Assembly (NCBI GenBank): GCA_050946055.1
Contig: JBMNUB010000002.1
Location: forward strand, 97,338 to 161,337
DNA: 64,000 nt
Source of the DNA: Candidatus Fimadaptatus sp.
GTDB lineage: Bacteria > Bacillota > Clostridia > Christensenellales > Aristaeellaceae
Direction of reading: 5' to 3'
Shown here piece by piece: positions 23,335 to 63,775 of this stretch. Within the stretch, counting starts at the first letter, position 1. Each line of letters starts with the position of its first letter. The translations under genes were made by a program, and so were the position numbers. The notes under the pieces are model-generated. The model saw nothing but the letters and a program-made list of their open reading frames with translations, did no database searches and was not told the DNA's origin.

Positions 23335-23773
23335 TGCGGCGGGCGGCGCTCAGGCGCATGTACTCTGCGCGCTAAAGCCGCCGGACCCCGCGGATAGCAC
23401 GGCCCTCTCGAACTCAAGCGCGCCCCAAAACTGTGCGGCGGGCAATCCTGCTTTCCGGGCAGGGCATCATCCTTTTCGACTTTTGCGCCCGGATATCCGC
23501 AAGGATTTGGGCGACGCTGGAATGGGTGCAGCGGCGGGAGCTTTTCCTTACTTTGGCCTATACAGAGACTCTTTTGCATGAATGAGTGCGCGCGGATGTT
23601 CTGCGCGCACTTTTGCGCTGCGGGCTGCGCATTTGTGTTCCATATGTGACATTTCAGACATCAAAAGCGGGCGAATGAACCAAGTGGATTGATTTTCAGC
23701 GAGTTTCTGATATAATGAAACATAGATGGCGAGAGCCATTCTAGGGCATAAACAGAACACAAGGGGGAGAACT

Positions 23774-33947: not shown

Positions 33948-34262
33948 CAGGGAACCGGGAAATGCCCGGTTTCCGTAGACTGTCAAAAAACCTCGGAGAG
34001 CTCGGCGGGCCTCGCAGCCCGCCGACTTAGGTAGCGCCCAGCGACATGTGCGGTGGGCGCTCAGGATTTTTTACGCATGGAAATCTCATTTCCCGGAGTA
34101 AAAATATCTTCCTTGCAGTTTCCACGCCCGGAAATCCGCAGGATTTCAGTGGAAACTGAGTATGGGTGGCAGTGGCGGGGGAGATTCTCCACCGTCCACG
34201 CTTGTCAAAAAGACGCTTTGACAAGCTGAGGGAACCGGGAAATGCCCAGTTCCCTCAGCTTG
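33948..34262. repeat. Copy A of a roughly 300-bp hairpin-rich intergenic repeat element (candidate structured ncRNA or MITE)
   Basis: Shares a conserved core with 49525-49848 and 54470-54745 (…GGCGACATGTGCGG…TTTT.C…GGAAAT…ATTTCC…CCTTGCAGTTTCCA…GTGGAAACTG…GGGGGAG.TTCTCC…CGCTTGTCAA…GATAAGCT.AG). Flanked by terminal direct copies of the hairpin GGGAACCGGGAAATGCCC.GTT.CC. Confidence 0.85.
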
Positions 34263-34302: not shown

Positions 34303-34827
34303 ATGGAGATAAGGCGGCTGGACAGGGAAACATATGCGGGGCGCGGCTTTACCGCCCGCTATGAAACGCATGGGTATTATGATATTCGCGCGACAGGCGG
34401 CGGCTTTGCGCTGGAATATGTGCCGCTTAAAGCTGGCGTGAAAAAGTCGTTTGACGACGTCATGTTCGGCGAATGGCTCGACGATCCAGTGGCATATGGC
34501 GCGTTCGAGGGAGAAAGCATGCTTGGCTTCGCGGAGGGATTTTGGGAAAGATGGAACAAACGATACCGCATAAGCAATATATGCGTGTTCGATGCCGCAG
34601 CGCGCCGCAGCGGAGTGGGTACGGCGCTTATGAATGCAATGATTGACGAAGCAAAGGCGGTATCGGCGCGCATGGCTGTTCTGGAAACTCAGACCTGCAA
34701 CGAGAATGCGATAGCGTTTTACCGGAAGAACGGGTTTGAGATAATTGGCTTTGACATGTATGCGTATTCAAACTTCGACCCGGAGCACCATGAAGTGCGG
34801 CTGGAGATGGGGCGCAAGCTGACATAG
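34303..34827 (+). CDS. GNAT-family N-acetyltransferase
   Basis: Acetyl-CoA binding motif RRSGVGTALMNAMIDEAK and GNAT fold length. Confidence 0.8.
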   Translation: MEIRRLDRETYAGRGFTARYETHGYYDIRATGGGFALEYVPLKAGVKKSFDDVMFGEWLDDPVAYGAFEGESMLGFAEGFWERWNKRYRISNICVFDAAARRSGVGTALMNAMIDEAKAVSARMAVLETQTCNENAIAFYRKNGFEIIGFDMYAYSNFDPEHHEVRLEMGRKLT

Positions 34828-48611: not shown

Positions 48612-49376
48612 ATGATGATAAGCGATGAGTTTTTGGAGAAGTATCGCGTGCTTGAGGACTTGCTCAGCGAGCGATATGCGCTGGAGCCGCGCAAGCACTC
48701 CAGCGTGGTGATAGAGTTCGCGTCCAGCCGCGAAGGTGAGCTGTTCAAGGACAGGCTGGATTTGTGCCGGGAGATACGCAACCTGCTGACACACAACGCG
48801 GCGCTGGACGGCGAGCCTGTGGTCACGCCCGCCCGCGCTACGGTCGACATGCTGGACGAGATAATCGCCTACGTGCAGCGCCCGCCGCTGGCGGCAAACT
48901 GGGCGACCAGCGCTGAGCGGCTGCTTATGACCACGCTGGAAGAACCGGCGCTCAAGCTCATGCGCATAATGGAGAGCCGCGGCTTTTCGCATGTGCCTGT
49001 GATGGAGCGCGGGCGCATAACGGGCGTGTTCAGCCAGAGCACCGTGTTTTCGTACACCTGCCGCGAGCGCGGCGCGCGCATCGACGAGCGCACGCGCGTG
49101 GGCGACATGGCGCGCTTCCTGCCGCTGGAGCGCCACTCCAGCGAGCGCTTTCTGTTCATGCCTGCGGACGTGAGCTATCTGGACGCGGCAACGGCGTTTA
49201 CGCCCGGTCAGGAGCGCACCAAGCGCGTAGCGGCAATATTCATAACCGAGACGGGCTCGCCCGACGAATCGCTTATAGGCATGCTCACGCCATGGGACAT
49301 ACTGGGCAAGGCCAAGCGGCAGATAGTCCAGCCCGAACACGGCGACACGCGCGCCGTGGTGGATGAGCAGATGTGA
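48612..49376 (+). CDS. CBS-pair domain protein with an N-terminal domain carrying a HEPN-like Rx4H motif
   Basis: Two CBS motifs (…GFSHVPVMERGRITGVFS… and …AAIFITETGSPDESLIGMLTPWDIL). N-terminal CREIRNLLTHNA contains R-x4-H. AAAGGAG RBS. Lies directly downstream of the pseudogene islet. Confidence 0.6.
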   Translation: MMISDEFLEKYRVLEDLLSERYALEPRKHSSVVIEFASSREGELFKDRLDLCREIRNLLTHNAALDGEPVVTPARATVDMLDEIIAYVQRPPLAANWATSAERLLMTTLEEPALKLMRIMESRGFSHVPVMERGRITGVFSQSTVFSYTCRERGARIDERTRVGDMARFLPLERHSSERFLFMPADVSYLDAATAFTPGQERTKRVAAIFITETGSPDESLIGMLTPWDILGKAKRQIVQPEHGDTRAVVDEQM

Positions 49377-49524
49377 ATGCGGATGAAGCAGAGCAGGGCA
49401 TGAGCATATGCACATGCGGATGAAGCAGAGCAGGGCATGAGCATATGCACATGCGGCTGACGTATATGGACAACGCGGGCATCGCAGCAGATTACATGAA
49501 GCCGCATGGCTCGCGCCTGAAAAG

Positions 49525-49848
49525 CAGCGCCGCTCCCGGACGCATTTGTCGGGAGCGGCGCTTGAACTATCGAAAAAGCCTCAAGGAGAGCTTGGGCCGG
49601 CTCGCAGCCCTCTTGACTTCGGGCGCGTACGGCGACATGTGCGACATGCGCACGATTTTTGCGCCGGGAAAATCCATTTCCCAGACCCAAATGCATGCCC
49701 TGCAGTTTCTATGCTCGCAAGCATTAATGCATGAGTGGAAACTGGTAGGAATGGCATGGGGGAGCTTCTCTCCCCGTCCGCGCTTGTCAAGCGCCATTTG
49801 TGATAAGCTAAGCGCCGCTCCCGGACGCATTTGTCGGGAGCGGCGCTT
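49525..49848. repeat. Copy B of the roughly 300-bp hairpin-rich repeat element
   Basis: Homologous core to copies A and C. Bounded at both ends by the identical hairpin CGCCGCTCCCGGACGCATTTGTCGGGAGCGGCG (49528-49560 and about 49811-49846). Preceded by a 38-bp direct repeat, two copies, at 49382-49457. Confidence 0.85.
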
Positions 49849-49926
49849 GTGTATATAATCTTTGGGGAATGCGTGCGGTCATGCACATGTGCCGCGCGCT
49901 TACGAGTGCATACGCTTACAATCGGC

Positions 49927-54469: not shown

Positions 54470-54745
54470 TTATCGCTCCCAAGAGGGCTAGCGGCCCTCT
54501 CGACTTCAATCGCGCCCGGCGACATGTGCGGCGGGCGCGATTGATTTTGCCATGGGAAATGGAATTTGCCAGAGTTAAAATATCTGCCTTGCAGTTTCCA
54601 TGTACGTAAGCCTGCAGGATTCCGGCGAAAGCCGGCAGGTGTGGCAGCGGCGGTGGAGGTTCTCCCGCGCCATGCTTGTCAAAAGACTTTCTGATAAGCT
54701 GAGCGAGCGCCCGGATAAGCATTGCTTGTCCGGGCGCTCGCTGCT
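54470..54745. repeat. Copy C of the roughly 300-bp hairpin-rich repeat element
   Basis: Homologous core (GGCCCTCTCGACTTCAATCGCGCCCGGCGACATGTGCGG…GGGAAATGGAATTTGCC…CCTTGCAGTTTCCA…CTTGTCAAAAGACTTTCTGATAAGCTGAG). Ends in the 13-bp-stem hairpin GCGAGCGCCCGGA…TCCGGGCGCTCGC. Lies between convergent genes. Confidence 0.85.
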
Positions 54746-59358: not shown

Positions 59359-59447
59359 GGAGAGATGTCCGAGCGGTTTATGGAGCTAGTCTTGAAAACT
59401 AGTGATGCTTAACGGCACCGGGGGTTCGAATCCCTCTCTCTCCGCTT
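59359..59447 (+). tRNA. tRNA-Ser (anticodon TGA)
   Basis: Acceptor stem GGAGAGA/TCTCTCC. Anticodon stem CTAGT/ACTAG with loop CTTGAAA. Long type-II variable arm. T-loop GTTCGAATC. Confidence 0.85.
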
Positions 59448-59485: not shown

Positions 59486-59577
59486 GGAGAAGTACCCAAG
59501 AGGCCGAAGGGGCTCCCCTGCTAAGGGAGTAGTGTGCGATAAGCGCAGCCCGGGTTCAAATCCCGGCTTCTCCGCCA
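59486..59577 (+). tRNA. tRNA-Ser (anticodon GCT), encoded CCA
   Basis: Acceptor stem GGAGAAG/CTTCTCC. Anticodon stem CTCCC/GGGAG with loop CTGCTAA. Long variable arm. T-arm CCGGG-TTCAAAT-CCCGG. 3' GCCA. Confidence 0.85.
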
Positions 59578-61192: not shown

Positions 61193-61708
61193 TTACGCGC
61201 CCATGCGCGCGCATATGCTGCCCAGCACGCCGTTGCGCTTGAGCGCGTAGAGCAGCGCGCCCGATATGGCCGCGCCCGCCGCTGTGGATATCAGGAAGGG
61301 CATTATGTATGCATAGAACGCGACGCTGCCCGCAGTCACGCCCATGAACAGCGTGGCGATGGGGTAGGCCAGCAGACCGCCTATTATGCCCGTGCCGAAC
61401 ACCTCGGCCAGCAGCGTGGGCATTATGCCGCGCGTATAGTGATAGACCAGCCCGCACAGCAGCGCGCCGCACATGCTGCCCGGGAATGCCAGCAGGCTAC
61501 CCAGTCCCATGAGGTTGCGCAGCAGGCTGGCCACAAAGGCCACGCCCACGCCATACCACGGCCCCAGCAGCACCGCGCACAGCACGTTGACCATGTGCTG
61601 CACCGGCGCGCACTTGCTTCCGAACACCGGGAACGAGAACATGCTGCCGGCGACCGCCAGCGCGCAGAGTATGCCGGCTGTGGCCAGCTTGAGTATGTTG
61701 GAACGCTT
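61193..61708 (-). CDS. thiW: Thiazole ECF-transporter S component ThiW
   Basis: ThiW hallmarks (FSFPVFGSKCAPVQHMVNVLCAVLLGPWYG…LLAFPGSMCGALLCGL…FGTGIIGGLLAYPI). Start assigned to MKRSNIL at 61708; the track ORF extends to 61840. Confidence 0.8.
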   Translation of the reverse strand, partial: KRSNILKLATAGILCALAVAGSMFSFPVFGSKCAPVQHMVNVLCAVLLGPWYGVGVAFVASLLRNLMGLGSLLAFPGSMCGALLCGLVYHYTRGIMPTLLAEVFGTGIIGGLLAYPIATLFMGVTAGSVAFYAYIMPFLISTAAGAAISGALLYALKRNGVLGSICARMGA

Positions 61709-62151
61709 CATAAATATCATCTCTCCTTTGCGATATAAAGGGGGCGCATCTGGTGAAAACAGCCCCCGTACAGGGTGCGGAGGGCAGACTTCGCCCACCG
61801 TTCGGTCGAGACTTGCTGGTCTCCTCTCACGCCGGAACACGGCTTCCCATCGCTGTCTTCACGCCACAGGGCGCTCCCCCTCTGGCGGCCCGCTTGCGGG
61901 TATACCCGCCTCCTTTCGCAAAGCAGTATCTATTCAAAGCGCCACGGGGCGTTTTGACCTATATGGGTAAAGGGCAACAGGTCATCAGCGCGCAATGTGC
62001 CATTGCGCATGCGTTTGCGCAGGCGATGCGTATCATATCGCCGCGCAGTGTGCGGCATATGGCTGTGCGTATGCGCAGACGATGCGTAGCATCCTCCCGC
62101 GCATATACGTCAGCAATGCATATCACCGCCATGCGCACCGCACGGCGCTCG

Positions 62152-62829
62152 TCAGACATCGTCTCGCGGCTGCATGCACATCTCCCAGAAGGCATGCTCA
62201 TGCTCGGAGCAGCGGCGGAATATGTCGAGGCACTTTGCCTCGCGCTCGGGGCTAAGTCCCTGACATGCGCGCTCGGTGAACTCCATCCACTCGCGGCAGA
62301 CAGCATCGTAGCTGCCGTCTGCGTAGTCGCGCACGAAAGGCCAGTAGGCCGTGTCGCGCACCTGGGGATAGTCGCGCAGCACCTCGCCGAATATGTATGC
62401 GTAGCTCAGCATGCAGGGCAGGCAGGCCATCATGCACTCGGGCGCGCCCTCGCCATCGCGCGCGGCGCTTAGCATCGTGTCCACATAGGCGCGGTTGGCC
62501 GGGCGCAGCGGAAGGTGCTGTATATCGGCATCGGTAAGGCCATAGCGCTTCATGTAGTACAGGCGAGTGGCATCCTCGCTCTCGTTTACGAAGGCGAGCA
62601 GCGAGTAGTATGCGCGTATCTCCTCGCTGGTTCTGGCATGCACCATGCCATAGGCGAATACCTTGGCGTATTCGCGCAGGTACAGGCTGTCATCGACTAT
62701 ATAGCCCTTGAAGCAGTCCTCGCTGAGAGTGCCTGCCGCCACGCCGCGCACGAAGGCGGTGTCCAGACAGCTGCGCCATATGGGCAGGCTGTCGCGTATT
62801 GCATCGCTTAGCATGCTCATCCTTTTCAC
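62152..62829 (-). CDS. tenA: Thiaminase II/TenA-family aminopyrimidine aminohydrolase
   Basis: TenA/THI-4 family pattern (…FVRGVAAGTLSEDCFKGYIVDDSLYLREY… and the catalytic Cys region …APECMMACLPC…). Start overlaps the thiD stop. Confidence 0.8.
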   Translation of the reverse strand: MKRMSMLSDAIRDSLPIWRSCLDTAFVRGVAAGTLSEDCFKGYIVDDSLYLREYAKVFAYGMVHARTSEEIRAYYSLLAFVNESEDATRLYYMKRYGLTDADIQHLPLRPANRAYVDTMLSAARDGEGAPECMMACLPCMLSYAYIFGEVLRDYPQVRDTAYWPFVRDYADGSYDAVCREWMEFTERACQGLSPEREAKCLDIFRRCSEHEHAFWEMCMQPRDDV

Positions 62830-63623
62830 CTCACAAACTCGCCCTGAAGCGCAAACATGTGGTCCATGGGGCCGCGTCCCCTGCCCAGATTTAGCATCGC
62901 GCCCAGCGCTCCCGATATGTACGCCTTGGCGCGGCGCACGGCCTCGTCAAGCTCATAGCCCTTGGCGAGGTTGGAGGCTATTGCGCTGGACAGCGTGCAG
63001 CCTGTGCCGTGTGTGTTGGGGTTGTCTATGCGCTTGCCGTTAAACCACTTGCCGTGGCCATTGCACCACAGGTAATCGTTGGCATCGTTCAGGTCATGGC
63101 CGCCCTTGAGCAGCACGGCACAGCCGTACTTTGCGCATATTGCCTGCGCTGCGGCTTCCATGTCGGCTGAGCTGGCGATGCGCCCGCCCAGCAGCACCTC
63201 GGCCTCGGGTATGTTGGGCGTTATAACGCAGCTAAGCGGCATGAGTCTGCCGGTGAGCGCCGATATCGCATCTTCGGATATCAGCCGCGAGCCGCTGGTC
63301 GCGACCATCACGGGGTCTACGACTATGTTCTGCGCGGAGTATTCTGCGAGTTTTTGGGCTATTACCTCGATGAGCGGAACTGAGGATACCATGCCTATCT
63401 TGACCGCGTCCGGGCGTATGTCGGTGAATACGCAGTCCAGCTGCTCGGCGAGGAATTCCGGGCTGGCTTCCTGTATGCTGCGCACGCCGGTGGTGTTCTG
63501 GGCGACCATGGCGGTTATGGCGCTCATGGCGTATACGCCGTTGGCGGTCATGGTCTTTATGTCGGCCTGTATGCCCGCGCCGCCGCTGGGATCGGTTCCG
63601 GCTATGGTGAGTGCTGTCTTCAT
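62826..63623 (-). CDS. thiD: Hydroxymethylpyrimidine/phosphomethylpyrimidine kinase ThiD
   Basis: ThiD motifs (LTIAGTDPSGGAGIQADIKT… and …GTGCTLSSAIASNLAKG). AAGGAG RBS before the ATG at 63623; the track ORF extends to 63680. Confidence 0.9.
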   Translation of the reverse strand: MKTALTIAGTDPSGGAGIQADIKTMTANGVYAMSAITAMVAQNTTGVRSIQEASPEFLAEQLDCVFTDIRPDAVKIGMVSSVPLIEVIAQKLAEYSAQNIVVDPVMVATSGSRLISEDAISALTGRLMPLSCVITPNIPEAEVLLGGRIASSADMEAAAQAICAKYGCAVLLKGGHDLNDANDYLWCNGHGKWFNGKRIDNPNTHGTGCTLSSAIASNLAKGYELDEAVRRAKAYISGALGAMLNLGRGRGPMDHMFALQGEFVR

Positions 63624-63775
63624 ATTATACAATGCTCCTTTTGGTATTGAGTCTTTCGGATAACGGCACGATGCGCGCATGTGGAAACCGGCGCTTGGAG
63701 ATGGCGCGGTGTATGGCGGTTAGGGTATGCCGAGCTTGCATGCGTTCATCATGCGGATGGGGGAGTATCACATGG

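Follow-up and report, generated by a model that had tools for sequence, protein, structure and literature searches.

A probable new MITE family of uncultured gut Clostridia that inserts into palindromic DNA and duplicates it whole

Insertion into an inverted repeat with duplication of the entire hairpin is a rare habit with one published precedent, namely IS1630 of Mycoplasma fermentans, a member of the IS30 family. In two sources, IS1630 is described as inserting into inverted repeats, typically the terminators of neighbouring genes, and as generating 16-26 bp duplications of these inverted repeats, which differ in length and sequence (PMC2853133; PMC3317919; both citing Calcutt et al. 1999, J Bacteriol 181:7597). 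Bacterial MITEs such as Correia in Neisseria, bcr in the Bacillus cereus group, and RUP and BOX in pneumococcus are small, lack a transposase and carry terminal inverted repeats (TIRs) (PMC3184786), and these traits are shared by the element described here. Within the window, by which the whole 64,000-nt stretch of DNA under analysis is meant, a set of related intergenic segments is read, with a probability of roughly 0.7, as copies of a ~250-bp non-autonomous DNA transposon (MITE) whose palindromic targets have been duplicated whole. The host belongs to a lineage of gut Clostridia that is uncultured, forms spores and is related to Fumia and to Christensenellales-like MAGs. The segments are best accounted for by a new MITE family within uncultured gut Clostridia and not by a new class of RNA gene.

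A first-pass annotation of the window had reported three homologous segments, A, B and C, and these are present where they were reported and clearly homologous by both blastn and MAFFT. In blastn, copy A matches copy C with 75% identity over 226 nt (E 2e-23) and copy B with 75% identity over 122 nt (E 1e-6). Pairwise identity among the three is 67-72% inside the element in the MAFFT alignment, and the mean column identity of the alignment including flanks is 72%. This inventory of A, B and C holds, but it overlooked the terminal inverted repeats, the 5' truncation of copy C, which is without its left end (~35 nt are missing, including the left terminal repeat), and a fourth copy, D, which was found with an HMM built from A, B and C (nhmmer, 23379-23557, + strand, E 2.5e-7). 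All four copies lie on the + strand and are intergenic (Table 1). Element copies are 232-255 bp in size and have a GC content of 54.5-56%, in a window of ~60% GC.

The gene context described in the first pass, with A located after floT and with B and C between convergent genes, was borne out. Copy A has a flotillin (Band_7) gene on one side and a GNAT acetyltransferase gene on the other. The neighbours of B are a CBS-domain gene and, converging with it, an alpha-L-fucosidase gene; those of C are a PG_binding gene and a convergent ABC-permease gene, and D is framed by a gene for a PfkB kinase and a gene of 606 aa. Upstream of B, just past the stop codon of the CBS-domain gene (49363-49460), lies a tandem repeat with a 37-bp unit (2.6 copies, 91% matches), which has one unit fewer in strain L025. 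The earlier view that the segments hold no credible ORF also proved correct, since indels of 1, 2 and 4 nt break the reading frame between copies and exclude a conserved ORF. The conserved blocks that had been listed are invariant or nearly so across copies and comprise GCGACATGTGCG, a T-tract, GGAAAT..ATTTCC, TGCAGTTTC, GGAG.TTCTC and GCTTGTCAA..GAYAAGCT.

Table 1 Coordinates of the element copies, hairpins and target palindromes in the window
Feature	Position	Strand	Description
Copy A	33975..34228	+	254 bp, 54.7% GC vs 60.3% in the window; left end GTAGACTGTCAAAAAA, right end TTTGACAAGCTG
Copy B	49565..49810	+	246 bp; most diverged among the full-length copies
Copy C	54470..54701	+	232 bp; P4 remodelled
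Copy D	23373..23591	+	Decayed; hairpin sequences of weak similarity on either side (23354-23372, 23592-23608)
P1 of copy A	34002..34025	+	Stem CGGCGGGC/GCCCGCCG; CGAGAGGGC/GCCCTCTCG in L020, L051 and L011
P2 of copy A	34032..34062	+	Invariant apical block GCGACATGTGCG, then T-tract; compensatory changes at 5/12 pairs
P3 of copy A	34068..34104	+	Outer A/T stem around GGAAAT..ATTTCC
P4 of copy A	34111..34165	+	CAGTTTCCAC..GTGGAAACTG around GGAAATCC..GGATTTC
P5 of copy A	34172..34199	+	GGCGGGGGAG..CTCC.CCGTCCAC
P6 of copy A	34200..34226	+	GCTTGTCAAA..TTTGACAAGC; 3' arm is the right terminal inverted repeat
Left target palindrome of copy A	33949..33974	.	AGGGAACCGGGAAATGCCCGGTTTCC, 10-bp stem; hairpin -17.3 kcal/mol
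Right palindrome copy of copy A	34229..34254	.	26 nt, 24/26 match to 33949-33974, 2 mismatches
Left target palindrome of copy B	49526..49564	.	39 nt; hairpin -30.4 kcal/mol
Right palindrome copy of copy B	49811..49849	.	39/39 match to 49526-49564
Long hairpin abutting right end of copy C	54702..54742	.	Between convergent genes; tip GGATAAGC-ATT-GCTTGTCC

The element ends in imperfect 15-bp TIRs, CAGACTGTCAAAAAA...TTTTTTGACAAGCTG. In a complete and young copy of 255 bp on a metagenomic contig (L051:3253-3507), CAGACTGTCAAAAAA and CAGCTTGTCAAAAAA (other strand) agree at 13/15 positions, and the TIRs are weaker in A (about 10/13) and in B. No other occurrence of the terminal-repeat motif was found within the window. 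Homology begins and ends sharply at the element ends, and the flanks of different copies are not related to each other. The hairpins that bound A and B had been proposed to be target duplications, and this is supported, as both pairs are direct repeats of locus-specific palindromes with local-alignment scores of 21 (A) and 39 (B), compared with a maximum of 12 in 500 shuffles. On the right side of A the palindrome is lengthened by AAGCTGA from the element and TCAGCTT from the flank into a long stem, which is followed by TGTTTAT. The L051 copy is flanked by an identical 21-nt direct repeat (21/21), TGAAATCGGAGATATCCGATA, which contains a palindrome with a 6-bp stem, and this target palindrome is situated between a near-consensus promoter and the next gene. 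The clean duplications are three in number, with lengths of 21 bp (L051), 26 bp (A) and 39 bp (B); their palindromes are unrelated and the insertions independent, and each duplication exceeds its local palindrome by 1-5 nt. In A, L020/L051 and L011b, the left end is located 0-5 nt past a locus-specific hairpin. At copy C, no flanking direct repeat was detected by the local-alignment test, and at copy D the flanking hairpins match at 17/19 positions with a gap, which is not significant on its own and makes a duplication there doubtful. The tip of the long hairpin that abuts C is formed by arms identical to the P6 arms of the element itself (GCTTGTCAA..TGATAAGC), and this hairpin could represent either a footprint or a nested fragment.

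Scans of genome, metagenome and viral collections with a two-block pattern returned matches in at least one other species (L011) and on at least two metagenomic contigs (L020 and L022), together with several chance matches. L011 is the MAG UMGS1603 of another uncultured Clostridiales species and contains two copies, one of which is also present in the metagenome contig L022, and the flanking DNA in this second species has no similarity to the window. The copies on L020 and L051 are 93% identical to A, with the L020 copy in a different gene context. Copy A had no blastn match in plasmid and phage collections, and a search of the literature for the motif strings yielded only unrelated primers.

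Related genomes provide empty sites for the insertions. A 21-kb contig of a relative (L027) is syntenic with window positions 19883-51550, encodes a flotillin that is 83% identical, and has no element copy at three orthologous sites. Site D spans 154 bp in this relative and 392 bp in the window, and site B is 70 bp long and contains one bidirectional terminator hairpin in place of the two in the window; this hairpin has CCGCTCC..GGGAGCGG in common with the duplicated hairpin of B. A closer relative (L028, flotillin 93% identical) is without copy A. Both relatives also lack the GNAT gene that adjoins A (34303-34827) between their flotillin and HAD-hydrolase genes and, given this absence and a third-position GC of 0.62 vs about 0.8 in the neighbouring genes, the GNAT gene was probably gained in a separate, lineage-specific event.

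One locus of the second species is polymorphic, with five empty and four filled contigs. The empty allele is a 140-bp spacer with one terminator hairpin, the filled allele contains a 305-bp element variant (L040:3566-3870, minus strand, also in L039, L041 and L044), and L011 has a further allele at this locus with the canonical left end beside the hairpin. The same species has a tandem repeat of ~90-bp units (GCGCTCTGGAAACAGCCGGAACGTCCCTTTTCCCGC...) downstream of the hydrolase gene, present as three units in L039:4900-5700 and as two units in L044:1150-1860, L049:4300-5010 and L050:920-1630. Inspection of the flanks for presence and absence, as suggested in the first-pass annotation, thereby revealed empty and filled alleles in relatives and in the second species, but none that was empty within the species of the window, where every sampled strain carries A, B and C and no recent movement was seen at these loci. 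For L051 no orthologous empty site was found, the nearest relative having a different downstream gene. Short-read contigs with the flotillin, GNAT or permease genes of the window all stop inside A or C, and those from nine samples all stop inside C, which is attributed to the effect of a multi-copy repeat on de Bruijn assemblies.

The mobile-element reading that had been offered in the first pass is supported by the TIRs, the three independent palindromic duplications, the empty sites, the polymorphism in the second species and the assembly breaks. The element is MITE-like because it is small and without ORF, has TIRs and target duplications, and occurs in dispersed copies with empty sites, polymorphism, decay and gene conversion. 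Against the MITE model, the TIRs are short and weak in A and B, the clean duplications are limited to three, and conservation of the interior blocks equals or exceeds that of the ends, an uncommon pattern in a MITE. No transposase was seen among the 30 largest ORFs of the window, which are housekeeping genes, and no autonomous partner with matching ends was found within the window.

The core of the element is a string of hairpins, P1-P5, with P6 being formed by the right end (RNAalifold, 5 then 9 sequences). In this alignment 89% of cells are paired, and two-sided changes occur at 14/75 pairs with five sequences and at 25/61 with nine, compared with 5.8 +/- 1.9 after column shuffling and 1-4 in controls with slid columns. 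The inner stem of P4 shows 3-4 pair types at every position across copies, while loop blocks such as GCGACATGTGCG and GCGACAUGUGCG do not vary among copies whose overall identity is 60-75%. P2 together with its T-tract is terminator-like, with matches at the corresponding hairpin in B and C. The P6 motif is confined to A, B and C, with 0 occurrences expected by chance, and in the fold of copy A its 3' arm can alternatively pair with the left end. Folded as RNA, copy A reaches z-scores of -9.2 (+ strand) and -7.5 (- strand), and on the + strand G-U pairs outnumber A-C by two to one, a weak hint about the strand. Pairing is nearly complete (74/75) in the youngest-looking copies, L020 and L051, and is eroded in the older copies B, C and D. 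The maintenance of stems by compensatory changes across subfamilies indicates that structure matters to the element.

This covariation has to be tempered in two respects. The copies on L020 and L051 represent one insertion with identical flanks, and they differ from each other by ~13 clustered internal differences that match other copies, from which it follows that whole patches move between copies by gene conversion. In addition, copy B at the same site in strain L025 differs by 5 clustered, pair-breaking changes, with flanks that are nearly identical.

Of the structured sRNA family suggested in the first pass, the conserved structure with compensatory changes and the lack of an Rfam match stood, but its assignment to a host RNA gene family was not supported. 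A host structured ncRNA family (an sRNA or a cis-regulatory leader or 3'UTR element) for which spread is secondary is unlikely, although it would accommodate the extensive pairing, the two-sided changes above both controls, the strand-biased G-U pairs and the invariant loop blocks. In two assemblies a TIR-less copy (L011:664-892 and L022:3959-4187) makes up the 5' leader of a rimO/miaB-like gene for a methylthiotransferase and extends right up to its RBS, and the L051 copy lies downstream of a near-consensus promoter; between the L011 and L022 leader copies the P1 loop is inverted (TTCG vs CGAA), a typical hairpin-loop flip. Such a family would be new, as it corresponds to no Rfam family. In contrast, A and C gave no internal match to a sigma-70-like promoter, the sole match in the stretch of B falls in the right flanking duplicate plus flank and thus outside the element, and the promoters upstream of L020/L051 and L011a are also outside the element and mutually unrelated. 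Copies B and C sit between convergent genes, L011b is antisense to both neighbouring genes, and copies are absent at the orthologous loci of relatives. D is decayed, B gains unpaired changes faster than its flanks, and the covariation stems partly from gene conversion of whole patches, to which hairpin-templated repair could also contribute. The core itself is a plain string of near-perfect hairpins in which no junctions or pseudoknots were detected. Based on the lack of an internal promoter, the decay of D and of B in another strain, the antisense copy and the absence at relatives' loci, the reading as a host RNA gene family is not supported.

A scan of the window against Rfam 15 agrees with the earlier statement that no known RNA was matched, as only two tRNAs exceeded the gathering threshold. 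These are adjacent tRNA-Ser genes (59359-59445 and 59486-59577) with the anticodons TGA and GCT. Permissive searches of A, L020 and L011 against Rfam gave only spurious sub-threshold miRNA models (E 0.07 or worse). Several candidate identities were tried and rejected: a T-box leader, of which the core is resembled by GGGUGGCAG, for want of a model match and because of the wrong context and UGACAG in L022; integron attC or Xer/dif modules, because the flanking hairpins are unrelated between loci; and a group IIC intron, because there are no intron features and the element duplicates its target. Near the end of the window, a thiamine salvage/transport cluster (ThiW, TenA, ThiD-like kinase) occupies 61193-63680 on the minus strand; no TPP riboswitch for it was detected inside the window, and its leader may lie past the window end.

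Within the MITE reading, the hairpin core may act as a cis-acting transposition site, as a structure of a single-stranded intermediate, or as RNA when it is co-transcribed. Perhaps, though this is improbable, the core is a functional RNA or ssDNA module for movement or targeting, for example an RNA guiding a transposase to hairpins or helping it to reach them, or has been co-opted by the host as in the rimO leader. If so, this would be a structured-RNA-dependent mobile element and not a passive MITE. The antisense orientation of L011b relative to both neighbours speaks against a role that depends on the upstream gene and is exerted through the transcript alone.

Two TIR-less, core-only copies, the one in the rimO leader (L011/L022) and the L040-type variant, are unexplained by a cut-and-paste MITE model. 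The L040-type variant contains three extra hairpins between GGTGGCAG and the complement CTGCCAC, has neither terminal repeats nor a palindromic duplication, and is positioned directly 3' of a TGCCAA that pre-exists in the empty allele. Alternatively, and with low probability, the family could consist of IS200/IS605-type single-strand DNA transposons, that is, palindrome-associated elements, possibly with the remnant of a guide-RNA scaffold, that insert 3' of TGYCAA without duplicating the target, in which case the hairpin-duplicated copies would represent the core nested in another small element. Insertion of the L040 type without target duplication would fit this mode, as would TGTCAA, TATCGA or TACCAA before the core in 6/7 copies and hairpins close to both core ends. 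The four window copies are also uniformly oriented with respect to replication as judged by GC skew, which is positive throughout the window except for one slightly negative 4-kb bin, but four copies on the same strand are statistically weak (p about 0.125). Three full-length copies, however, combine TIRs with long direct duplications of a kind that IS200/IS605 elements do not produce, none of the copies was seen to adjoin a tnpA, tnpB or iscB gene, and there was no match to the Rfam models of IscB/TnpB-associated RNAs. The right junction of the L040 insertion is, moreover, not seamless, with GAT lost and a 7-bp tandem repeat.

An RNA-mediated, SINE-like origin, in which a structured RNA would be copied into nicked palindromic targets, is very improbable. 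The variable duplication length, the retention of the right end in C, which is without its 5' end, the strongly conserved structure and possible co-transcription from outside promoters could all be reconciled with retroposition, but TIRs are present, there is no 3' tail or simple repeat, and no reverse transcriptase was seen within the window. A duplication equal to the palindrome is more simply accounted for by target geometry at the DNA level, for which IS1630 is a DNA-transposon precedent. To our knowledge, no SINE-like RNA-mediated mechanism of this kind is known in bacteria. Segmental-duplication remnants or a chance likeness of GC-rich terminator regions, for which the intergenic location alone speaks, are refuted by unrelated flanks with sharp homology limits at the element ends, E-values between copies down to 1e-23, the same element amid dissimilar flanking DNA in a second species, and the empty sites in relatives.

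Under the MITE reading, a transposase encoded elsewhere would recognise the imperfect 15-bp TIRs (CAGACTGTCAAAAAA and, on the other strand, CAGCTTGTCAAAAAA) and the element would be inserted at palindromic DNA, mostly intrinsic terminators that follow genes or separate them, but once a small palindrome in a 5' leader. Both strand transfers would take place at the outer edges of the palindrome. If these edges are brought together as the two bases of a hairpin or cruciform, the linear distance between the transfers would equal the palindrome length, and gap repair would then duplicate the entire hairpin; duplications of 21, 26 and 39 bp are observed, and the cruciform-like geometry is what we infer from them. 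With an intact hairpin on each side, both neighbouring genes would keep a terminator, which would make such palindromes low-cost landing sites and would explain the persistence of copies between convergent genes. Once inserted, copies diverge, lose ends as in C and D, and exchange patches by gene conversion.

If this reading is correct, the family would be a second case, independent of IS1630, of transposition guided by the shape of the DNA (a palindrome) and not by its sequence, with the whole hairpin being copied, in a very different lineage and in a non-autonomous form. The terminator left on each side suggests a near-costless colonisation of compact genomes. In practical terms, the element breaks short-read assemblies of gut Clostridia MAGs and creates duplicated terminators as well as long structured 3' and 5' UTRs. 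Since patchy gene conversion can mimic RNA covariation, caution is advised for pipelines that aim at the discovery of intergenic ncRNAs.

In comparison with known systems, the element resembles IS200/IS605-derived palindrome-associated elements in being hairpin-rich and non-coding and in its orientation bias, and its TIR-less variants insert without duplication near a short motif. The full-length copies differ from these elements by their TIRs and long duplications and have no Y1 transposase or TnpB/IscB gene nearby. With bacterial MITEs the element shares target duplications, many intergenic copies, stable predicted RNA folds and an occasional co-transcription with neighbouring genes (PMC3184786). 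The typical MITE, however, duplicates 2-10 bp of arbitrary or simple sequence, whereas here a whole palindrome of 21-39 bp is duplicated, and the typical MITE folds via its TIRs into one long hairpin, whereas the element forms 5-6 independent hairpins with invariant loops and compensatory stems. Repeats with terminator-like hairpins at convergent 3' ends (PMC3184786) have the location in common with the element, but in those cases the repeat itself is the hairpin, while the element lies between duplicated, locus-specific hairpins of the host. The ends of E. coli IS30 are TGTAGATTCAATTGGTCAACGC and TGTAGATTCAATCTGTCAATGC, with which the left end of copy A has only GTAGA and CTGTCAA in common when a 6-nt gap is allowed; this loose likeness in sequence may serve as a lead and is not counted as evidence. 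A close parallel is IS1630, which is an autonomous element of 1.2-1.4 kb from a mollicute of 27% GC, has inverted repeats of 27 bp and encodes an IS30-type transposase, while the element is 250 bp long, non-coding, bounded by 15-bp repeats and resident in Clostridia of 60% GC. Despite these differences, both insert into inverted repeats and duplicate them, over 16-26 bp as described for IS1630 and over 21-39 bp in the element.
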